A program made the translations under genes and the position numbers. The notes under the pieces were generated by a model, which saw only the letters and a program-made list of their open reading frames with translations, did no database searches and had not been told where the DNA came from. 11,529 bases of DNA from a virus (lineage: Duplodnaviria; Heunggongvirae; Uroviricota; Caudoviricetes): positions 1 through 11,529 of the IMG/VR virus record IMGVR_UViG_2534681833_000007; one strand, 5' to 3'. Shown one piece after another: positions 2,957-10,858 of the stretch. Every line of letters starts with the position of its first letter. Positions within the stretch are counted from its first letter, which is position 1.

Positions 2957-3312
2957 CAGTGAGTGACCTCTTCAAAGGTACAGTTAAAATCGGTATACAT
3001 GGTATTATCCGAAATGCTCCACTCCCTGCAGACAACCCGGACAGTCCTGTTGTGTTTTGGCGGACGCCACAAAAAAGCACGAATCCCGGCATGACGGGAT
3101 AAAAAACTGTCCAGCGCGGCACGGGAATATTCATCTGTGACACGAAATACCGGTTTAAACGTTTTCAGATCCGCATTCAGACCACCAGCCCGTCGCTGTT
3201 CATATCCGTCACCAAACTTTACCGTAATAACTGATGGCTTTCGTGTCGTCTCCATCCCCTCACGGGGGATCCAGTTAAAAACTTCAGGCTCAGGCACTGT
3301 ACAATCCTCCAT
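2956..3312 (-). CDS. M: Minor tail protein M (divergent lambda gpM homologue)
   Basis: Conserved core ...KFGDGY...AGLNA.LKT...SFL...FLW.PP... aligns with recalled lambda gpM at roughly 35-40 percent identity. Start placed at ATG 3312 (118 aa) because the lambda N-terminus (KTFRWKVKPGMD) aligns with EVFNWIPREGME upstream of the alternative ATG at 3255. The track start at 3342 is a TTG. Confidence 0.75.
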   Translation of the reverse strand: MEDCTVPEPEVFNWIPREGMETTRKPSVITVKFGDGYEQRRAGGLNADLKTFKPVFRVTDEYSRAALDSFLSRHAGIRAFLWRPPKHNRTVRVVCREWSISDNTMYTDFNCTFEEVTH

Positions 3313-6300
3313 CCCGACGCGATGACTGCATAATTGACACAACCCTGCTGTCGATCAGATCCACCAGTCCCCTGGCTGAGCGCGCATCTATCTCGCCATT
3401 GCTCCCTTGATTCTGAATGCTGATGTGATACACGGGAGAATAAACAAATCCACCGCCACCATTCACATTTCCAATGGCCCTGACCCCAAGAGAGCCGTCC
3501 GCTGCCCGTGTCAGTGGCATGATTGCTTCAGGCCCGGCCTCGCCCATCAACCCGGCACCTTTCGCAAAAGCAAAATACGTCGGTGTATCCACAATAGTGT
3601 TACTGTAAGCACTCAGATTTGCCGATGTGTAAACACCACCTTTTGCGTTTGCCACTGCCCCCGAAATCCATCCGCCGACCGTACCAAGCCACCCTCCGGC
3701 ACCGGAGAGTGATTTCAGTCCGTTAACAATGGCTGCATTCATCAGAATTTTTGAAACTTCCCGGAGAACTGAACTCCCCCAGTTCCTCCAGTCCACAACA
3801 TTCCCGGCCAGTGCATCGGAAATATTTGATACCAGCCCGTCCATCGTGGAAACGACAGCATCTGCCGCCTGTGAAGCATAATCGGTGGCACTGTCTGCCC
3901 AGTTGGTCAGTCCCTCCTGGAGTCCGGCATTCCAGTTATTACGTAAAGCATCGGCCTTTGCATAATAATCCTGCTGATCGCTGAGACGCTCTTCCAGATA
4001 TTTTTTATTCAGTTCTTTCTCCTGTTTCCACAGAGCTTCTTCAATTTCTCCGGCCTGATACTGTCTCAGCAGCTCGTTATTTTTCTGCTCAAACGCCTGC
4101 CGGATACTCCACATTTCCTGGAGTCGTTCACGCATCCGTGAGCCTTCACCATATCCCAGCAACTGCGCTTCGTCAGATGCCCGGGCACTGGCATTACTGT
4201 CCGCCAGACTGCTCTCATACGCAGCAAGCTGCTCACGAATCTTTTTCTGGTCGATGAGTGCTGCATTCTGCAAAAGCGTTTTTTTCTGCGCTTCTGACAG
4301 GGTTGATAATTCGCCCTGACTGACCTGATATTTCATCTTAGCCAGTTCAGTATTCTGCCCTGCCAGTGCTATTTGTTCTTTTTGCTGTTTAATCAGCCGT
4401 TTATAAATATCTTCTGTTTTTTCCGCTTCGGTCTTTTTATGCGCTTTGGGTTTATTTGCCTGGTTATTTCGCCAGGCATCCAGTGAGTTATTGATATAAT
4501 TCTGTCTGGCTGTCTGATACGCCTCTCCCACAAAGCCGAGATCATCCGCAGCATAACCCAGGCGGGCACGCTCACGGGCTTCCCCCTTCAGGCGGGACAG
4601 AGCCAGTTCGCGCTCACTGTTATTCAGTGCGGCCTGCTGTTTATCATCCAGGGTTGCCTGTGGTAGCCGTAACGGTACATTCACCAGCCCCTGTCGCTGC
4701 TGAAGTAATTCATTACCGAGCCCGAGAAGGCGATTAAACTCGGTATGCTGCCCATTCATGATCAACAGGGACTGATACGCTTTGTTTTGTTCCGCGGCCT
4801 GTTGACGGATCAACGCCACCCGTCGCTCCTCCAGCCCGGCAAGCACATCCTGAATGGATTGCGCTTTGCCCTGCATTTGTGTGAGACGGGACTGTTCAAC
4901 TGCCAGTTGATTTGTTGCTTCTGCAAGCCCTTCTGTGACAGTTTTTACCGACGTCATGTGGTTAATCATAAAACCGTTATCGGTTGTCCAGCCCGGGTTT
5001 GCCAGCACATACTGATAGCCAGCAATTTTTTCCTGTAAGGATTTAATCTTACTTTTCTGCTCGTCAATTAACCTGTTTTGCTCATCAAGTGCCTGCCGCG
5101 TCTTTTCCTCATTATCTGACGCTTCAGGAAGCGACATTGCCGACGTTTTCTGGCGAATTTCGTCGATTGTTGCGGCATACTGGCGTGCAGATTCTCTGGC
5201 CTGCTCCTGATTCTGATACATCGTGTACCAGGCCGTCGCCCCCAGCATGACGAGTCCCGGCACACCACCAACCAACCCCAGCGCACCACTTAACAGACGA
5301 CTCCCCACTGACGTGACAGTATTCAGCGTTGTCTGTGCCGCTGTTCTGGCCGCAATATTACGGGTAAGTGACGCCTGGGCAGCTGTCAGCTTCGCTTCTG
5401 CTGCGGCCTGCCTTTCGGTACCGCGAGCAGCAACAACCGCCTGTTGCGCACGATAAACCGCCGCACGCGCCCTGGCGGTTGCTATCTGTGTCCCCCGAAG
5501 TTGCGCTTCAGCAAGAGCCACTTCTTTTCTGGCTGCAGTAATTAATCCGGCAGTTGCAGATCCAGCAGACGACGCCATATTGCCAAAATATCGGGCTACC
5601 CCGACGGCAACCAGTGCGCCAGCTGCAGCAGCCACGGTATCCATATTGTCTGCAACACCATTCAACACCCCGGTGAGTGTCTTTGTCACTCCGCTTGCCT
5701 CGTTCGCACCACCAACCCAGGCCATAAAGGCGTTTTCAACTTTGGTTGCAGAGGATGAAACAGTATCAGGCATTGCTGCATATTCATCACGCAACGCCCC
5801 AAGCTGACTAATCAGTGCAGGAACAACCTTATCGGCGGTCAGTTTTCCGTTATCCGCCATGGCCTTCAGATCCTTACGGGCAACACCCATTCCCGCAGCC
5901 AGCGCACGAATAACACGATCGCCGTTCTCATTCACAGAGTTAAATTCTTCACCGCGCAGCACTCCCTGCGCCAGTGCCTGACTGAACTGCGTGATCACCG
6001 AACTGGCTTCTGCTGTACTGGCACCGGATAATTTCAGGCCCGTAGAGATCGCCTCGGTGACTTTCAGTACCTCCTCAGAACTGTAGCCATACTCCCGCAT
6101 GGAAGCTGCAGAGCGGGCAAAAAGGCTGGCGTTATCAGAAAACGCCGTTCCCGTTCTCTGGCTGATTGCCATTAATTCACGTTGTGATACCTGAAAATCA
6201 TCACTGGACTGTGAAGCCTGCTTCAGACGGGCATTTACTGAATTCCACTCATCGGCGAGAGAAATAAGATGACCGGTAGCAAAAGCTCCGGCAAATGCCC

Positions 6301-6523
6301 CCGCCATATTCAGTGCCGAAGATTTAGCTATATTTATCTGATCCGTCACTTCTGCCAGTGCACGCCGCATTTCACGGGATGCAGCAGCGGACTGCCGGCC
6401 TCCGTTCTGCATGGTACGGTAGTAATCCTGCCCCATACGCGAAGCCCGGGAGATCTCTGACTGGAATGACCGGGAATTTGCCGAGATTTTAATAATCAGT
6501 TCACGTAATGTCGCCACACTCAT
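3290..6523 (-). CDS. Tail tape measure protein (1077 aa)
   Basis: Very long ORF placed between the chaperone pair and M; Ala/Gln-rich helical central region typical of tape measure proteins, Gly-rich hydrophobic C-terminal segment. ATG at 6523 preceded by GGAGA. Longer than lambda gpH (853 aa as I recall) and not obviously co-linear with it. Confidence 0.9.
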   Translation of the reverse strand: MSVATLRELIIKISANSRSFQSEISRASRMGQDYYRTMQNGGRQSAAASREMRRALAEVTDQINIAKSSALNMAGAFAGAFATGHLISLADEWNSVNARLKQASQSSDDFQVSQRELMAISQRTGTAFSDNASLFARSAASMREYGYSSEEVLKVTEAISTGLKLSGASTAEASSVITQFSQALAQGVLRGEEFNSVNENGDRVIRALAAGMGVARKDLKAMADNGKLTADKVVPALISQLGALRDEYAAMPDTVSSSATKVENAFMAWVGGANEASGVTKTLTGVLNGVADNMDTVAAAAGALVAVGVARYFGNMASSAGSATAGLITAARKEVALAEAQLRGTQIATARARAAVYRAQQAVVAARGTERQAAAEAKLTAAQASLTRNIAARTAAQTTLNTVTSVGSRLLSGALGLVGGVPGLVMLGATAWYTMYQNQEQARESARQYAATIDEIRQKTSAMSLPEASDNEEKTRQALDEQNRLIDEQKSKIKSLQEKIAGYQYVLANPGWTTDNGFMINHMTSVKTVTEGLAEATNQLAVEQSRLTQMQGKAQSIQDVLAGLEERRVALIRQQAAEQNKAYQSLLIMNGQHTEFNRLLGLGNELLQQRQGLVNVPLRLPQATLDDKQQAALNNSERELALSRLKGEARERARLGYAADDLGFVGEAYQTARQNYINNSLDAWRNNQANKPKAHKKTEAEKTEDIYKRLIKQQKEQIALAGQNTELAKMKYQVSQGELSTLSEAQKKTLLQNAALIDQKKIREQLAAYESSLADSNASARASDEAQLLGYGEGSRMRERLQEMWSIRQAFEQKNNELLRQYQAGEIEEALWKQEKELNKKYLEERLSDQQDYYAKADALRNNWNAGLQEGLTNWADSATDYASQAADAVVSTMDGLVSNISDALAGNVVDWRNWGSSVLREVSKILMNAAIVNGLKSLSGAGGWLGTVGGWISGAVANAKGGVYTSANLSAYSNTIVDTPTYFAFAKGAGLMGEAGPEAIMPLTRAADGSLGVRAIGNVNGGGGFVYSPVYHISIQNQGSNGEIDARSARGLVDLIDSRVVSIMQSSRRDGGLYSA

Positions 6524-6533
6524 TCTCCGGACG

Positions 6534-6554
6534 AAAAAAACCGCCGAAGCGGTT
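6534..6554 (-). terminator. Terminator-like hairpin just upstream of the tape measure start (stem AACCGC/GCGGUU, UUCG loop, then U5 on the minus-strand RNA)
   Basis: Inverted repeat 6539-6544 / 6549-6554 with loop 6545-6548 and a 7-A run at 6534-6540 on the plus strand, lying in the 40-nt gap between the T stop (6563) and the tape measure ATG (6523). Confidence 0.3.
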
Positions 6555-6562
6555 ATGTTGAC

Positions 6563-7236
6563 TCACTGAGACACTATTAAAAGCGCGTTTTCCAGTCCGG
6601 CAAATGGATCTGAGACGCCTTCTGTCTGCTCTTGTTCCCACTGAAGAAGCGCATCATTCAGTGGGACTTTGACACCCTGCGCACCGTAAACCGCAGAAAC
6701 TATCTGGGCAGCCCGGATATCAGCCCGCTCGTCACCCAGCGGGCTGAACCTGTCAAATTCTGCCCACATCATGATTTCTGATGCGGACATTTCCCGGCGT
6801 AACTCTGACAATGTGCGCCCCATCCTGAGCGCCAGCATCATCAGAAAACGCATCCCCGGAAGCGCTACTTTTTTTTAACCTCGCCGGCATCACTGATCAG
6901 TTCCAGAGACTGCCGAAGAAGCCGCGCATGCACCGGGCCATACACGGCAATCACCTGTTCACGATCATCCTCTGAAAATACAGGTTGCAGTCCGGTATCA
7001 CACAGAACATCAATGAATAGTTCAACATCTGCCTCCAGATTTCGGCGGGCGCGCTCCGCAACGGATAACGGTGTCTCATCATCTTTTGCTTTAACGATCT
7101 CCTGCCAGCGCAACCAGGCTTCTGCAGAAGGTTCCCGTAATACAACCGTTGCCCCTTCCCATTCAGGCACATCAACAGTTTTATGGCGAAACCCCGACAT
7201 CGTTGCCAGTGCCAGATTGCGGATATTTTTAGTCAT
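6563..7236 (-). CDS. Tail assembly chaperone G-T fusion, made by -1 programmed ribosomal frameshift near the 3' end of G
   Basis: The 6563-6853 ORF (T part) is in the -1 frame relative to G (codon phase checked: G codons start at coordinate 1 mod 3, T codons at 2 mod 3). G ends ...GAG GTT AAA AAA AAG TAG, so a slip on A AAA AAG reads on as ...KK-VALPG-MRFLMMLAL... This is the conserved G/GT arrangement found immediately upstream of tape measure genes. Confidence 0.75.
6865..7236 (-). CDS. Tail assembly chaperone (lambda gpG-equivalent)
   Basis: ORF directly upstream of the tape measure gene, ending in the slippery site. Start chosen at ATG 7236 (GAGGAT about 7 nt upstream); an alternative ATG at 7251 overlaps the major tail protein stop (TAATG) and would add MRIDV. 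Confidence 0.8.
   Translation of the reverse strand: MTKNIRNLALATMSGFRHKTVDVPEWEGATVVLREPSAEAWLRWQEIVKAKDDETPLSVAERARRNLEADVELFIDVLCDTGLQPVFSEDDREQVIAVYGPVHARLLRQSLELISDAGEVKKK
6868..6874 (-). promoter_or_regulatory. -1 frameshift slippery heptamer A AAA AAG (G to G-T)
   Basis: Plus-strand C + T8 run at 6868-6876; on the minus strand the heptamer is in X XXY YYZ phase with the G frame, and the G stop TAG follows immediately. Confidence 0.7.
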
Positions 7237-7250
7237 CACATCTATCCTCA

Positions 7251-7955
7251 TTAACTGACGGTAACAGTGCAGGAAGTGGAGGTCACCTTGTTAACAGGGC
7301 TTGCTGAATCAGAAATCTCGCAGGTATACGCACCGGCATCACCTGATGCTGCTGATGCCTTACTGAATGTTGCCGCCGTCTGTCCGGAAACAGGAGAACT
7401 ACCTTTCTTCCAGACATAAGAATAAGGCGGCACACCACCGGCAGCCTCAACCACCATTTCGAGTTTCGCTCCGGCAGAAACCTGCAGCGTGCTGTTTAAA
7501 TCGACCTTCACTTTCAGCGGCTCTGTCGTCAGCACAGGTTTACCTTTCAGGCGCAGGGAAAACGTTGCAGCCACAACACCATTAGTTCCTGCAGACCAGG
7601 TATGCTGACGCACCTCTGCCATAAAGGTAAATCCGTTGCCTGACGGAAAAATAACTTTAAAGCCATACGTGGTGTCATTGTCATAGGCACTGCGCAACGC
7701 GTTCTGGGCAGCATTGAGGTAAAAGTTGCCTGACATGGAAATCTCTGACGCGGCACCAAGGCCGTTAATATTTTCCTGCTCAACAGAACACAGCGTGGTG
7801 ACATCAATATCCTGCTTTTGTCCTGCGGTAAACTGCACCTCTTTGATTGTACAGCTCAGGCCAAGATAGCTGGCAGAATCCAGGGTTTCTGCTGTTACCG
7901 GTGCAGACGAAATCATAATTTTCGTCAGTTGCGAACGCTCAAAATTAGAGGACAT
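7251..7955 (-). CDS. Major tail (tube) protein with C-terminal Ig-like domain
   Basis: Sits in the position of lambda V (after the terminator-like gene, before the chaperone pair). 234 aa from ATG 7955 with AGGAGA 6 nt upstream. C-terminal ~90 aa (...GGVPPYSYVWKKGSS...GAYTCEISD...CTVTVS) has an Ig-fold-like pattern. Not recognisably lambda gpV by sequence. The track start at 8006 reads through the hairpin and U-tract and is probably wrong. Confidence 0.8.
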   Translation of the reverse strand: MSSNFERSQLTKIMISSAPVTAETLDSASYLGLSCTIKEVQFTAGQKQDIDVTTLCSVEQENINGLGAASEISMSGNFYLNAAQNALRSAYDNDTTYGFKVIFPSGNGFTFMAEVRQHTWSAGTNGVVAATFSLRLKGKPVLTTEPLKVKVDLNSTLQVSAGAKLEMVVEAAGGVPPYSYVWKKGSSPVSGQTAATFSKASAASGDAGAYTCEISDSASPVNKVTSTSCTVTVS

Positions 7956-7969
7956 ACTCGTCTCCTGAA

Positions 7970-7994
7970 AATAAAAAACCCGCCAGCGGCGGGT
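7970..7994 (-). terminator. Intrinsic-terminator-like hairpin upstream of the major tail protein gene (stem CCCGCC/GGCGGG, then UUUUUUAUUUU on the minus-strand RNA)
   Basis: All-GC 6-bp stem 7979-7984 / 7988-7993 (one further A-U pair 7978/7994), 3-nt loop, followed on the minus strand by a U-run (plus-strand A-run 7971-7978). Lies between the upstream gene stop (8015) and the RBS/ATG at 7955. Confidence 0.4.
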
Positions 7995-8014
7995 GGGTAA
8001 AATCATTAACGACC

Positions 8015-8359
8015 TCAGGCTATTACCTGAAATTCAAGCGTGGCTCTGCTCAGACGGGAATCAGGATCATAACCCTGAGTTTTAGAAATAACGGAGGGTG
8101 CAAGTTGCCTTACCGCATCAAGCGCCTGCTCACGGATATCATCTGCGTCATCAGGTACTGTTGCCCAGACATCGATCTGCACGGTAATTCTGGATTCAGC
8201 CTGACCATCAAGCACATCAGACGCAGTGTCAGACACCACAGAAAATACCAGCCATGGCGGAGATACCGCAGGCTTTCCCTCCGTCAGCGGGACCACATAA
8301 GGATAAACCTGTCCTCCGGCCAGTTGAGACAGCAGGGAATACAGTGTGGTCTCTCTCAT
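8015..8359 (-). CDS. Tail terminator / tail-component protein (lambda U-position; family not identified from sequence)
   Basis: 114-aa ORF. Its ATG at 8359 overlaps the upstream stop (ATGA). Called by position between the gp10-like gene and the major tail protein gene. Confidence 0.7.
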   Translation of the reverse strand: MRETTLYSLLSQLAGGQVYPYVVPLTEGKPAVSPPWLVFSVVSDTASDVLDGQAESRITVQIDVWATVPDDADDIREQALDAVRQLAPSVISKTQGYDPDSRLSRATLEFQVIA

Positions 8360-8802
8360 TTACTTAAGACCTCATCAATAGCCTGATTCATTCGCTGTAT
8401 GGCAATCTGTGCTGCCAGTTCCTCTGTCGTATCGAAAGCCGGGCGAATGAACGGATGCGCGGGCATGTTTATCGTTCCCAGCTCCACAAAGCGCCAGTAA
8501 AACGCATTTCGGGGATCACTGGCTTTCATGCTGTTATCACTGTTTCCGGTTCGCAGGTTCCGTCCACGAATGTGGACACCCGAGATAATTTCCCCCCGAC
8601 GCTTTGAACGCTGAGTGAGAACAACCACATTTTTCTTCAGTTTCCCGGTTCGCTCCGGCGCACGTTCAACAACTGCATCCCGCATAACTTCAGCACCGGC
8701 ACGGGTGGCATCGCGCAGTACCTTATTGTTTTCTGCCCTGCTGAGCGTCTCCAGATCCCGTGCAATATCCGCCAGACCTGAAAAATCAAGACTGAAATCC
8801 AT
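8356..8802 (-). CDS. Tail completion / head-tail joining protein, HK97 gp10-like (lambda Z-position)
   Basis: 148 aa from ATG 8802 (AAGGGGA about 7 nt upstream; the track start at 8805 is a GTG). Contains ...MPAHPFIRPAFD..., which I associate with the HK97 gp10 family. Its ATG overlaps the stop of the truncated upstream remnant (TGATG). Confidence 0.75.
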   Translation of the reverse strand: MDFSLDFSGLADIARDLETLSRAENNKVLRDATRAGAEVMRDAVVERAPERTGKLKKNVVVLTQRSKRRGEIISGVHIRGRNLRTGNSDNSMKASDPRNAFYWRFVELGTINMPAHPFIRPAFDTTEELAAQIAIQRMNQAIDEVLSK

Positions 8803-8922
8803 CACACATTCCCCTTCTGAGAACAGAGTATCTCAAGCCGTGTGGCACGAGCATCCGGTATCGGCGGACCGTCTATACTCAGAATCGCGCCTTTGAATGC
8901 ACCAGTCAGCACTTTCAGACAT
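8802..8922 (-). pseudogene. 3' remnant (39 codons plus stop) of a phage morphogenesis gene whose 5' part is replaced by IS2
   Basis: Minus-strand frame is open from the IS2 boundary (8922) to a TGA at 8804..8802, translating CLKVLTGAFKGAILSIDGPPIPDARATRLEILCSQKGNV*. The stop overlaps the next gene's ATG in the coupled fashion seen for the rest of the operon. No start codon or N-terminal part exists on this side of IS2. Confidence 0.5.
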
Positions 8923-8963
8923 TAGACTGGCCCCCTGAATCTCCAGACAACCAATATCACTTA
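8923..8963 (+). repeat. IS2 left terminal inverted repeat (IRL)
   Basis: Imperfect inverted repeat with 10213-10253; shared blocks GCCCC...TCCAGACA...TATCACTTA seen directly. Confidence 0.8.
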
Positions 8964-9013
8964 TTTAAGTGATAGTCTTAATACTAGTTTTTAGACTAGT
9001 CATTGGAGAGCAG

Positions 9014-9379
9014 ATGATTGATGTCTTAGGACCGGAGAAACGCAGACGGCGTACTACACAGGAAAAGATCGCTATTGTTCAGCAGAGTTTTGAACCGGGA
9101 ATGACAGTCTCCCTTGTTGCCCGGCAACACGGTGTGGCAGCCAGCCAGTTATTTCTCTGGCGCAAGCAATACCAGGAGGGAAGTCTTACTGCTGTGGCCG
9201 CAGGAGAACAGGTCGTTCCTGCCTCTGAACTTGCTGCCGCCATGAAGCAGATTAAAGAACTCCAGCGCCTGCTCGGCAAAAAAACGATGGAAAATGAACT
9301 CCTTAAAGAAGCCGTTGAATATGGGCGTGCAAAAAAGTGGATAGCGCACGCGCCCTTATTGCCCGGGGATGGGGAGTAA
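9014..9379 (+). CDS. insC: IS2 OrfA (InsC), HTH transposase-regulator component
   Basis: ATG 9014 with GGAGAG upstream; 121 aa [56 protein letters not shown]... matches recalled IS2 InsC. The track start at 8969 is an upstream extension. Confidence 0.92.
9331..9337 (+). promoter_or_regulatory. IS2 orfA-orfB -1 frameshift heptamer A AAA AAG
   Basis: AAAAAAG at 9331-9337 is in X XXY YYZ phase with orfA (codons GCA AAA AAG); orfB is in the -1 frame and begins at this point. Confidence 0.7.
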
Positions 9380-10242
9380 GCTTAGTCAGCCGTTGTCTCC
9401 GGGTGTCGCGTGCGCAGTTGCACGTCATTCTCAGACGAACCGATGACTGGAAAGATGGTCGCCGCAGCCGTCACTCAGATGATACGGATGTGCTTCTCCG
9501 TATACACCATGTTATCGGAGAGCTGCCCACATATGGTTATCGTCGGGTATGGGCGCTGCTTCGCAGACAGGCCGAACTTGATGGTATGCCTGCGATCAAT
9601 GCCAAACGTATTTACCGGATCATGCGCCAGAATGCGCTGTTGCTTGAGCGAAAACCCGCTGTACCGCCATCGAAACGGGCACATACCGGCAGAGTGGCTG
9701 TGAAAGAAAGTAATCAGCGATGGTGCTCTGACGGGTTCGAGTTCCGCTGTGATAACGGAGAAAAACTGCGAGTCACGTTCGCGCTGGACTGCTGTGACCG
9801 TGAGGCACTGCACTGGGCGGTCACTACGGGCGGCTTCAACAGTGAAACAGTACAGGACGTCATGCTGGGAGCGGTGGAACGCCGTTTCGGCAACGAGCTT
9901 CCGGCGTCTCCAGTAGAGTGGCTGACGGATAATGGTTCATGCTACCGGGCTAATGAAACACGGCAGTTTGCCCGGATGTTGGGGCTTGAACCGAAGAACA
10001 CGGCGGTGCGGAGTCCGGAGAGTAACGGCATAGCAGAGAGCTTCGTGAAAACGATAAAGCGTGACTACATCAGTGTCATGCCCAAACCAGACGGGTTAAC
10101 GGCAGCAAAGAACCTTGCAGAGGCATTCGAGCATTATAACGAATGGCATCCGCATAGTGCACTGGGTTATCGCTCGCCACGGGAATATCTACGGCAGCAA
10201 GCCAGTAATGGGTTAAGTGATAACAGGTGTCTGGAAATATAG
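9337..10242 (+). CDS. insD: IS2 OrfB (InsD), DDE transposase catalytic part; normally expressed as an OrfAB fusion by -1 frameshift
   Basis: 301-aa ORF (GTG at 9337) ...[29 protein letters not shown]...[18 protein letters not shown]..., matching recalled IS2 InsD closely; appears full length. Confidence 0.9.
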
Positions 10243-10253
10243 GGGCAAATCCA
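10213..10253 (+). repeat. IS2 right terminal inverted repeat (IRR)
   Basis: The reverse complement TGGATTTGCCCCTATATTTCCAGACACCTGTTATCACTTAA pairs with IRL. Confidence 0.8.
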
Positions 10254-10651
10254 GGCAAATCCTTTACGTTACTCTCTGATGACTTCTTATATTTATAATA
10301 CCAATCAGACAGCCTTATCCCATCGGTGATATCAGTCTCCTCCTCGCCAGGAACGGGCTGACTCACTGTAACCACCTCCGAAAACAACTCTGCAATTATC
10401 AGAACGCTAGTTTTCCCCTTGTCTCACGAAAGTCCTCCCTCCTTTATCGCGCGTGCGTGCGGAAGCATCTTTTCGCAACAACCACCCGGGATTCCGCTAC
10501 GGCTCTGCCATCGCAATCCCCCCGTTTATCTCCGGACAGCCACATTCCCGATTATTTTTTACGTTTCTCCCCGGTTGTTATGCCAGTGAAGGTGGCGCGC
10601 TGTTTTCATGACCACACCGGCTGGTTTAACAACATCCGGAGGAACATTCTC

Positions 10652-10858
10652 ATGGCTACCCCTGTTTCGCTGATGGATGACCAGATGGTCGACATGGCGT
10701 TTATCACTCAACTTACCGGCTTAACCGATAAGTGGTTTTACAAACTCATCAAAGATGGGGGCTTTCCTGCCCCCATCAAAATGGGGCGCAGCTCCCGCTG
10801 GCTGAAAAGTGAAGTGGAAGCCTGGCTGCAGGCGCGTATTGCACAGCCCCGTCCGTAA
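10652..10858 (+). CDS. AlpA-family phage/island regulatory protein (small HTH, excisionase-like)
   Basis: ATG 10652 with GGAGG 8 nt upstream; 68 aa MATPVSLMDDQMVDMAFITQLTGLTDKWFYKLIKDGGFPAPIKMGRSSRWLKSEVEAWLQARIAQPRP. Size and motif resemble AlpA-like proteins of P4/CP4-57-type integrative elements. The track ORF from 10457 is an upstream extension with no RBS. Confidence 0.75.
   Translation: MATPVSLMDDQMVDMAFITQLTGLTDKWFYKLIKDGGFPAPIKMGRSSRWLKSEVEAWLQARIAQPRP

Follow-up and report, generated by a model that had tools for sequence, protein, structure and literature searches.

A G/GT-type −1 frameshift signal in the tail module of an IS2-truncated prophage

The tail module of this prophage places two short genes, G and T, in overlapping frames between the genes for the major tail protein and the tape measure protein. 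This arrangement raises the question of whether G and T are made only as separate products or whether some ribosomes slip from one frame to the other and produce a fused GT protein, and, if so, what in the sequence directs them. Throughout, "the window" is the whole stretch of DNA analysed here, 11,529 nucleotides (nt) in length. We conclude that the locus very probably encodes a programmed −1 ribosomal frameshift of the G/GT kind, within a siphovirus tail module of HK97/lambda type. An earlier note on this DNA had proposed that such a slip, on A AAA AAG, gives a G-T fusion, and the identity of the genes, the geometry of the frames, conservation across the family and a published measurement all support the proposal.

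Gene identity and geometry of the slip site

The minus strand carries, in order, the major tail gene, G, T (6853..6563 from its first ATG) and the tape measure gene (Table 1). The G product matches the Pfam family Phage_TAC_1 (PF06222) over its full length (E = 2.4e-58; 195.9 bits versus a gathering cut-off of 25), and T matches Phage_tail_T (PF06223; E = 3.1e-19; 69.6 bits versus a gathering cut-off of 25.9). A Pfam search of G at E ≤ 0.01 returned no chaperone family besides Phage_TAC_1; lambda G belongs to a different Pfam family. The T domain of lambda is homologous to that of the window, both being Phage_tail_T, and the T-frame motif LALRMGRT aligns with LAREMGRP in lambda T. The start of G is preceded by GAGGA 8 nt ahead of its ATG, and PGAP picks the same ATG in an identical prophage.

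Table 1. Coordinates of features in and around the G/T locus
Feature	Position	Strand	Remarks
Tape measure protein gene	3290..6523	−	Pfam TMP_3, Phage_HK97_TLTM, Tape_meas_lam_C
Terminator-like hairpin and T run	6539..6554	−	Between T stop and tape measure start
T-frame coding sequence after the predicted slip	6563..6868	−	VALPG plus 96 aa; stop TGA 6565-6563
Predicted RNA hairpins 3′ of the heptamer	6800..6866	−	Not supported as stimulator
ATG in the T frame, possible but unlikely T start	6851..6853	−	11 nt past the G stop
0-frame stop TAG of G	6865..6867	−	Abuts the 3′ end of the heptamer
G-like tail assembly chaperone gene	6865..7236	−	123 aa; 13.9 kDa; ATG 7236; stop TAG 6867-6865
Slippery heptamer A AAA AAG, in the G frame	6868..6874	−	P-site AAA 6873-6871; A-site AAG 6870-6868
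Run of eight A containing the heptamer	6869..6876	−	Followed by G6868
TAA in the −1 (T) frame	6875..6877	−	Abuts the 5′ end of the heptamer; closes the T frame upstream
Major tail protein gene, C-terminal Ig-like domain	7251..8006	−	Weak Pfam matches to Phage_TTP_11, Phage_tail_2, Ig_2
IS2 orfA/orfB frameshift heptamer A AAA AAG	9331..9337	+	Unrelated element; IS2 spans 8923-10253

The neighbouring genes encode the presumed partners of the two chaperone forms: the tape measure protein for G and GT, and the major tail protein for the T domain. The true start of the major tail gene is probably downstream of 8006; PGAP calls this gene as a 705-nt CDS, and its equivalent in HK446 is annotated as similar to the HK97 major tail subunit. 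A terminator-like hairpin separates T from the tape measure gene. HK446 has an annotated terminator directly ahead of its tape measure gene.

In its own frame, G ends GGC GAG GTT AAA AAA AAG TAG, with GTT at 6879-6877 and the three lysine codons at 6876-6868; the stop lies directly 3′ of the heptamer, as had been reported from first inspection. The −1 frame across the same stretch reads GGT TAA AAA AAA GTA GCG CTT CCG GGG ATG CGT. The downstream frame is indeed the −1 frame: it is open from 6874 to 6563 and overlaps G by 7 nt, a space that the heptamer fills exactly. Because the −1-frame TAA and the 0-frame TAG bound this overlap, a productive shift is confined to the 7-nt heptamer itself. Re-reading of G6868 would yield a GT protein of 224 aa (25.2 kDa) with the predicted junction ...EVKKKVALPGMRF..., also written DAGEVKKKVALPGMRF, and the junction peptide named in the earlier note agrees with this translation.

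The heptamer is not in itself rare in the window, where AAAAAAG occurs three times versus 1.65 expected and 48 of 200 shuffles reach that count. The placing of the G/T copy, in frame and filling the whole overlap between the two stops, is far beyond chance. Its last codon specifies Lys123, which is invariant in the G protein alignment and is encoded by the rarer AAG (E. coli usage: AAA 0.76, AAG 0.24).

On this geometry, most ribosomes would translate G and terminate at its TAG, and a minority would move back by one base at A AAA AAG. There, the single E. coli tRNA-Lys would re-pair from AAG to AAA, the preceding tRNA-Lys would re-pair from AAA to AAA, and the slipped ribosomes would read GTA GCG CTT... 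in the T frame to complete GT. Judged by analogy to lambda, both G and the corresponding part of GT would coat the tape measure protein, the T part would recruit the major tail protein, and the frequency of the shift would set the G:GT ratio. The same analogy suggests that G and GT have lambda-like functions.

Conservation, known systems and stimulatory elements

To ask how far this arrangement extends, we compared 50 homologous loci from species other than the window's. T lies in the −1 frame at 47 of these, and every one of the 47 carries A_AAG at the end of G. The complete heptamer A AAA AAG is found at 28 loci, 21 with the window's exact arrangement of heptamer and directly adjacent stop and 7 with the stop 12-24 nt later. 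G GAA AAG occupies the site at 8 loci, and 11 have only N NNA AAG followed by TAA; at one of these 11 (L035) the region open to shifting is just GGCAAAG, leaving A_AAG and the adjacent stop only. The stop comes directly after the AAG codon at 32 of the 47 loci, where it is always TAG or TAA, and further downstream at 15. The site arrangement is kept in homologues down to about 50% protein identity.

A member of this family has been measured. Antonov et al. (2013, Table S2) report 7% frameshifting in E. coli for the A AAA AAG TAG signal of a "Phage_TAC" cluster. The supplement names no organisms; the tested cassette could be assigned by its sequence, which is the same letter for letter as the end of G in Stx2 phage 1717. 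The G of that phage shares 68% identity with the window's. Extrapolating from this homologous cassette, slippage on the window's sequence would occur at roughly 5-10%. The efficiency could differ from 7% because the measured homologue has A6G (AGA AAA AAG), not the A8G of the window (GTT AAA AAA AAG).

The closest named systems are HK97-type pairs similar to HK97 gp13/gp14, found in HK446, HK106 and O157 Stx prophages (Stx2 phage 1717 among them); these pairs share the combination of Phage_TAC_1 and Phage_tail_T, the gene position and the −1 register. In the Stx-prophage member, A AAA AAG runs straight into TAG, a signal identical to the window's, although the G proteins of the HK97-type and Stx-prophage group are only 64-68% identical to the G studied here. 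HK446/HK97-type phages differ in reading CGG GAA AAG with five more codons before the stop, the heptamer ascribed to HK97 itself resting on the HK446 and HK106 annotations. HK446 also has an extra small gene (gp15-like) ahead of the tape measure gene, which is absent in the window. Both HK446 and HK106 have a joined GT CDS annotated as "similar to HK97 gp14".

The lambda G/GT frameshift has been treated in a series of studies (Levin, Hendrix & Casjens 1993; Xu, Hendrix & Duda 2004, 2013, 2014). Its heptamer, correctly given in the earlier note, is G GGA AAG, with a shift of about 4% and a G:GT ratio of about 30:1. There too the −1 slip lies near the 3′ end of G and tRNA-Lys moves from AAG to AAA, and the ratio of the chaperones is governed by a shift of a few percent; the lambda G stop is 15 nt downstream of the heptamer, whereas that of the window is adjacent. 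On this reading, the window's site is the ordinary, well-known G/GT −1 frameshift of the lambda/HK97 type.

The same A AAA AAG and the same logic of tRNA-Lys re-pairing serve dnaX and the orfAB genes of the IS2/IS3 family, none of which is related to the window's G and T. A_AA.A_AA.G is among the most efficient heptamers in E. coli, and A_AA.G is the most shift-prone tetramer. Slips on the tetramer A_AAG, or "shifty stop" slips (Weiss et al. 1987; Sharma et al. 2014), find their counterpart in the 11 homologues with A_AAG and an adjacent stop only. Unlike such tetramer sites, the window carries the full heptamer and so does not depend on single-tRNA slippage. A further difference concerns accessory signals: dnaX relies on an upstream Shine-Dalgarno (SD)-like sequence and a downstream hairpin, and IS3 and IS911 on a pseudoknot or three-way junction, whereas no conserved stimulator accompanies the site described here.

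This last statement rests on several searches. Folding of 6867..6800 gave a minimum free energy of −27.7 kcal/mol (z = −2.7), and folding of 6900..6760 gave z = −3.5, so the suggestion that the downstream RNA would fold held for the window. Comparison with relatives did not bear out a stimulatory role. RNAalifold on 18 aligned homologues with A AAA AAG and adjacent stop yielded a consensus of −0.93 kcal/mol with 0 compensatory pairs, the covariation score of the window's own structure was reached by 151 of 500 column shuffles, and the helix nearest the slip site pairs in 49% of cells across the alignment. One helix is well conserved, GCGCUC-N6-GGGCGC, which begins 35 nt past the heptamer; it encodes the conserved ALRMGR motif and never covaries. 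On these grounds, lacking a consensus structure or covariation in homologues, the downstream RNA was rejected as a demonstrated stimulator. An SD-like stimulator would be sought 6-17 nt upstream of the motif, and the candidate GAGG at 6882..6879 was rejected because only 4 nt separate it from the heptamer and relatives do not conserve it (e.g., GAAGTTATT in L122). An Rfam scan of the whole window returned no family at its gathering score. As no stimulatory element was found, the level of shifting may be low. The lambda G/GT slip reportedly needs no stimulatory structure.

Alternative readings of the locus

The chances are about even that the signal is an inert relic in this host, its sequence intact in a defective prophage and neither G nor GT made or needed. 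Such a reading concerns function in this host, not the mechanism that the sequence encodes. The match to an intact prophage (99.5% over 8.5 kb) ends at 8922, inside the head-closure gene, exactly where IS2 starts. The two flanks of IS2 differ (GACAT versus GGCAA), which implies a rearrangement or deletion rather than a simple insertion. An unrelated AlpA-like regulator region follows beyond IS2, and terminase, portal, protease and capsid genes are all absent from the window. Tail-gene expression in this host is doubtful because IS2 cuts the prophage at 8922/8923 and the prophage lacks the head genes and the upstream late region. The exact IS2/prophage junction was not found in complete E. coli genomes; all matches begin at the IS2 end. 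Weighing on the other side, the tail module is nearly identical to those of intact prophages and its open reading frames are undisrupted, so the loss is recent. In addition, the genes absent here could be located at another site in the genome, and tail genes of a defective prophage are usable through recombination with, or complementation of, incoming phages. The earlier claim that tail assembly needs a G:GT ratio fixed by shift efficiency stands by analogy with lambda, but an IS2-truncated prophage may build no tails.

IS2 brings a second A AAA AAG into the window, and the earlier note had drawn attention to its sharing with G/T. The element's orfA reads CGT GCA AAA AAG TGG, with the heptamer in X XXY YYZ register and orfB in the −1 frame, and an A6G frameshift window in IS2 has been described (PMC3219604). 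The shared heptamer is thus real, but the coincidence is biologically meaningless, A AAA AAG being among the commonest and most efficient −1 motifs in bacteria. We rejected a meaningful link, since the count does not exceed chance and IS2 is an unrelated element that inserted secondarily; shuffled sequences match the AAAAAAG count often enough, as given above, that two elements with the same heptamer are unremarkable.

With regard to mechanism, conservation suggests that the adjacent stop may aid the slip by giving the P-site tRNA-Lys time, as in a "shifty stop". An adjacent stop is not essential, since 15 of the 47 homologues place theirs further downstream. One could go further and suppose that the family's essential signal is only A_AAG plus an adjacent stop, at which the P-site tRNA-Lys slips while awaiting release factor, with the length of the A run (3, 6, 7, 8 or 9) acting as an evolutionary dial on G:GT and polymerase slippage joining in at A8-A9. 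We regard this extended reading as possible but improbable. If it were true, the window's site would be recoded at two levels and would make more GT than the 7% of A6G.

Polymerase slippage as a source of GT in its own right is distinctly unlikely. RNA polymerase would stutter on A8 (a T8 template) and add one A in some transcripts, giving GT (EVKKKVALPG...) in addition to, or in place of, ribosomal frameshifting. The run here is 8 long, A runs with n > 7 have been implicated in programmed transcriptional realignment, and yield in the cassettes climbs with run length, from 10% at A7 to 40% at A9 and 63% at A11 (Antonov et al.). Two near relatives, L131 and L132, carry A9 (GTT AAA AAA AAA TAG). 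However, the documented cases of highly efficient slippage by bacterial RNA polymerase involve runs of 9 or more, and the same −1 frame is kept in homologues with A3 (GCA AAG TAA, 11 loci) or A6 (measured at 7%), in which polymerase slippage is not expected. Relatives with runs of 3, 6, 7, 8 or 9 all reach the same outcome, and the conserved trait is a codon register, the in-frame A_AAG, a property relevant to ribosomes but of no consequence to RNA polymerase. Even so, some of any GT product could stem from polymerase slippage, and mass spectrometry is blind to the distinction because both routes yield EVKKKVALPGMR.

It is very improbable that ribosomes start T independently at ATG 6853, whether by initiation or by reinitiation after terminating on G, with no need for a frameshift. 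The ATG is in frame a short way past the G stop, and in the PGAP annotation a separate T CDS of 96 aa begins there. However, this ATG is not conserved, being replaced by GTG in L085, by ATA in L103, L131 and L132, by ATT in L122-L128 and Stx phage 1717, and by ACG, ACA, ACT or CTG in distant homologues. GTG, ATA and ATT all occur in near-identical prophages. No properly spaced SD sequence precedes the ATG, the only SD-like bases, GGGG, abutting it. The five T-frame codons from the heptamer to the ATG are open in all relatives, with the −1 register kept at 47 of 50 loci, and ATT stands in place of the ATG in the homologue measured at 7%. In lambda it is GT that serves as the functional species.

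Finally, DNA-level slippage in the A8 tract, which would make the locus alternate among three states (G-only, fused GT and broken), is hardly credible: A7 variants exist, as four IMG/VR contigs and as a protein cluster of 54 members (P0001) that continues into the +1 frame, and in a single A6 contig G and T are fused in frame (P0002), but among contigs with the same flanks A8G accounts for 118 of 122, A7G for 4 and A9G, the single-step fused form, for 0, counts on which we rejected phase variation; A7 moreover gives a +1-frame extension rather than GT, which fits sequencing error or decay, and lambda requires G and GT simultaneously, which switching cannot supply in one infection.

Annotation and use of the natural variants

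Of 5426 complete E. coli genomes, 874 carry at least 80% of this region, mostly at 95-99% identity. Both PGAP and the majority of phage records treat G and T as distinct genes, and they are two separate proteins in every RefSeq record among the matches listed. No slippage join is present in the one RefSeq record examined in detail, nor in one phage record. With G and T kept separate and unjoined, the 224-aa GT is therefore missing from those records.

Beyond correct annotation, the significance of the ribosomal G/GT frameshift at this locus is small. The family as a whole is a set of natural variants of one site, comprising A_AAG plus stop, A6G, A7G, A8G, A9 and G GAA AAG, and with this series one could measure the influence of run length and of an adjacent stop on −1 frameshifting. 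Since the site is read by two tRNA-Lys, the thiolation state of U34 in host tRNA-Lys should affect the G:GT ratio, an influence demonstrated for the lambda frameshift.

A probable −1 frameshift site at the end of the G gene

The earlier note had proposed that a −1 slip at the end of the tail assembly chaperone gene G fuses it to the downstream T ORF, and our analysis confirms the observation and supports this reading: the site represents the lambda G/GT frameshift in its HK97-type form. In frame 0 the gene ends GGC GAG GTT AAA AAA AAG TAG, so that an eight-nucleotide A run (A8) holds the in-frame heptamer A AAA AAG with the stop codon next to it. The same bases in the −1 frame read GGT TAA AAA AAA GTA GCG CTT CCG GGG ATG; their TAA closes the T frame directly 5' of the heptamer, and a productive shift is therefore confined to the heptamer's seven bases. 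Reading G6868 twice gives a predicted GT protein of 224 aa and 25.2 kDa, and translation of this slip yields the junction DAGEVKKKVALPGMRF, exactly the peptide that had been predicted.

Features of the window; the relevant tail genes are all on the minus strand
Feature	Coordinates	Strand	Evidence
HK97-gp10-like gene	8805..8356	−	Pfam
gp17-like tail completion gene	8359..8015	−	Pfam
Major tail protein, C-terminal Ig domain (mechanical ORF, 251 aa)	8006..7251	−	Pfam
Terminator-like hairpin and T run before major tail gene	7994-7978	−	
G-like chaperone, 123 aa	7236..6865	−	PF06222 Phage_TAC_1, E 2.4e-58, full length
−1-frame TAA	6877..6875	−	
A8 run	6876..6869	−	
Heptamer A AAA AAG	6874..6868	−	
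G stop TAG	6867..6865	−	
T-like ORF, 96 aa	6853..6563	−	PF06223 Phage_tail_T, E 3.1e-19
Distal helix GCGCUC-N6-GGGCGC	6826-6809	−	
Terminator-like hairpin and T run before tape measure gene	6554-6539	−	
Tape measure protein, 1077 aa	6523..3290	−	Pfam
lambda M/L/K/I-like genes	downstream of tape measure	−	ORF list
Third AAAAAAG copy	3071-3077	+	
IS2	8923..10253		
IS2 orfA heptamer	9331..9337		
Damaged region around IS2	8806-10258		
ORF in AlpA-like regulator region	10457-10858		

Lambda uses G GGA AAG, as the earlier note stated and the lambda sequence bears out, with the G stop 15 nt downstream, whereas here the heptamer is A AAA AAG and the stop adjoins it. The lambda shift occurs at a frequency of about 4%, for a G:GT ratio of about 30:1; there, G binds the tape measure protein, as does GT through its G part, and T is the portion that binds the major tail protein. 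In phages HK446 and HK106, G is 64% identical to that of the window, and joined GT coding sequences are annotated as similar to HK97 gp14. Antonov et al. (2013) grouped 41 frameshifted genes resembling an HK97 protein into a "Phage_TAC" cluster and assayed two of its cassettes in E. coli; the second (G GGA AAG) gave 6% frameshifting, and the first (A AAA AAG TAG; 7%) has exactly the sequence of the G end in Stx2 phage 1717, a phage whose G protein shares 68% identity with that of the window. Frameshifting has thus already been demonstrated for the same heptamer and adjacent TAG in the same gene family, and the type of signal found in the window is already known to shift.

The late tail operon also contains terminator-like hairpins with T runs before the major tail and tape measure genes, the same two genes that are preceded by annotated rho-independent terminators in HK446; the region has 7 intrinsic-terminator-like sites versus 2.5 expected. 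The mechanical major tail ORF begins upstream of its hairpin. PGAP assigns a 705-nt coding sequence to this protein in an identical prophage, so the true start probably lies further downstream.

Conservation of the site and a possible role of the adjacent stop

We collected 50 homologous loci from genome contigs of different species and 80 from IMG/VR, and located the G C terminus and T in each by tblastn. Of the 50 genomic loci, 47 have T in the −1 frame, and in every one of these the overlap ends with A_AAG read in the G frame. The three others, from Leclercia NCTC13032 (L016), Serratia sp. L9 (L025), and Candidatus Symbiopectobacterium endolongispinus (L048), look like indel-damaged or pseudogenised copies.

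Arrangement of the shift site in the 47 genomic loci with T in the −1 frame
Arrangement	Loci	Examples
A AAA AAG, then TAG/TAA directly (as in the window)	21	Serratia, Symbiopectobacterium, Brenneria, Pectobacterium, Morganella, Proteus, Providencia, Yersinia, Kosakonia, Enterobacter, Buttiauxella
A AAA AAG, stop 12-24 nt later	7	L019, L028, L038
G GAA AAG, then more codons (HK446/HK97-like)	8	L003, L020
N NNA AAG, then TAA directly, no heptamer	11	L007, L018, L021, L029, L032, L033, L035, L036, L049, L050, L052 (all)

Within the C-terminal tail of the aligned G proteins, only the lysine at the site is invariant; it is encoded by the rarer codon AAG (E. coli usage, 0.24). In the best-supported mechanism, two tRNA-Lys would slip −1 in tandem on A AAA AAG. 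Few heptamers shift as efficiently in E. coli as A_AA.A_AA.G, and no tetramer outperforms A_AA.G; the rule behind this is that the A-site tRNA re-pairs cognately (ZZN to ZZZ). A stop directly follows AAG in 32 of the 47 homologues, 11 of which lack the heptamer; in one of these (L035) the entire shift window between both stops is GGCAAAG. This pattern suggests that slippage of the P-site tRNA-Lys, while a slowly decoded stop occupies the A site, can contribute, in line with the "shifty stop" concept as outlined by Weiss et al. (1987). An adjacent stop is not essential, since it lies further downstream in 15 homologues. In all 32 loci the adjacent stop is TAG or TAA, never TGA; TGA would likewise give Val (GTG) in the T frame.

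The earlier note had also pointed out that IS2 uses the same heptamer. The IS2 site is as described (CGT GCA AAA AAG TGG in orfA, heptamer in register, orfB in the −1 frame), and its A6G frameshift window is a textbook case (PMC3219604). As an informative parallel, however, it adds nothing: the window holds three copies of the string versus 1.65 expected, 48 of 200 shuffles do as well, and with a count so near chance the co-occurrence is uninformative. A link between IS2 and G/T was therefore rejected, both having the heptamer because it is the best motif available in E. coli. What is informative about the G/T copy is its placement and conservation. The third copy lies opposite the tail genes, in the region of the M-like gene, and no coding context is apparent for it.

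Other routes to T and candidate stimulators

Slippage of RNA polymerase on the A8 run could add to the GT yield at this site. The run is borderline for such slippage, for which Antonov et al. cite n > 7 and which is documented as efficient in bacteria for runs of 9 or more. As a family-wide mechanism it is ruled out, since relatives attain the identical −1 frame with A3 or A6 runs and what is conserved is the codon register, a ribosomal feature. Two IMG/VR loci (L131 and L132; G 78% identical) end GTT AAA AAA AAA TAG; here the A run reaches nine and the heptamer becomes A AAA AAA, a sequence that would be prone to polymerase and ribosomal slippage alike.

Independent initiation of T at the ATG at 6853 would make a fusion unnecessary to T synthesis, but relatives do not keep this codon: prophages with 80-99% identity to that of the window have GTG, ATA, or ATT there, distant ones have ACG, ACA, ACT, or CTG, and the homologue tested experimentally for frameshifting has ATT; no properly spaced Shine-Dalgarno sequence was found before it. 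DNA-level variation of the A tract was rejected: exact-pattern scans of IMG/VR returned 118 contigs with A8G, 4 with A7G (4/122), and none with A9G, and the A7 form gives no GT, G being extended by 37 codons in the +1 frame (protein cluster P0001). A7 variants (L099, L104, L121, and L137-L140; P0001, P0003, and P0004), in which T is out of reach of a −1 shift, may reflect either homopolymer errors in sequencing or genuine inactivating mutations; one A7-type protein cluster (160 aa) has 54 members.

Returning to ribosomal frameshifting, the suggested stimulatory RNA downstream adds nothing to this reading. In the window, the RNA 3' of the heptamer is more stably folded than its shuffled versions (z = −2.7 for 68 nt; z = −3.5 for 141 nt), but among 18 diverse homologues sharing the heptamer-stop arrangement, RNAalifold gave a consensus of −0.93 kcal/mol with no compensatory pairs, the window's own structure scored no gain over column shuffles, and the helix adjoining the site pairs in only 49% of alignment cells. 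The distal helix is strongly conserved across genera, third codon positions included, and shows no covariation or compensatory change in the homologues; it encodes the T motif ALRMGR (LAREMGR in lambda T). Lying 35 nt 3' of the heptamer, it is too distant for a classical stimulator. Upstream, the sole Shine-Dalgarno-like sequence is a non-conserved GAGG, and its spacing of 4 nt to the heptamer falls short of the 6-17 nt range used for −1 stimulation. An Rfam search of the window gave no match. With these tests negative, the signal comes down to a bare heptamer and an adjacent stop.

Prophage context and annotation

The G/T region (at least 80% of its length) is present in 874 of 5,426 complete E. 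coli genomes, with identities mostly of 95-99%, and in phages including phi467 and Evi. Over 8.5 kb the window is 99.5% identical to an intact prophage; this match ends at 8922 within the head-closure gene, where IS2 starts. The 5-mers flanking IS2 differ (GACAT versus GGCAA), with no target-site duplication, and thus point to an IS2-associated deletion or rearrangement, excluding simple insertion. Past IS2 the DNA is unrelated, an AlpA-like regulator region; the window lacks the terminase, portal, protease, and capsid genes together with all that lies upstream, and the IS2/prophage junction occurs in no complete E. coli genome of the collection. Although undamaged, the frameshift signal probably lies idle in this host.

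In all RefSeq records shown, G and T are annotated as two proteins. The one examined in detail (NZ_CP019020.1) has no slippage join, a phage record (ON470580.1) cuts the region into three "tail assembly chaperone" fragments, and a joined GT coding sequence is found only in the entries for HK446 and HK106. Taken together, the feature is a correctly recognised case of a well-characterised recoding event, whose GT product is left out of the public annotation of this region.
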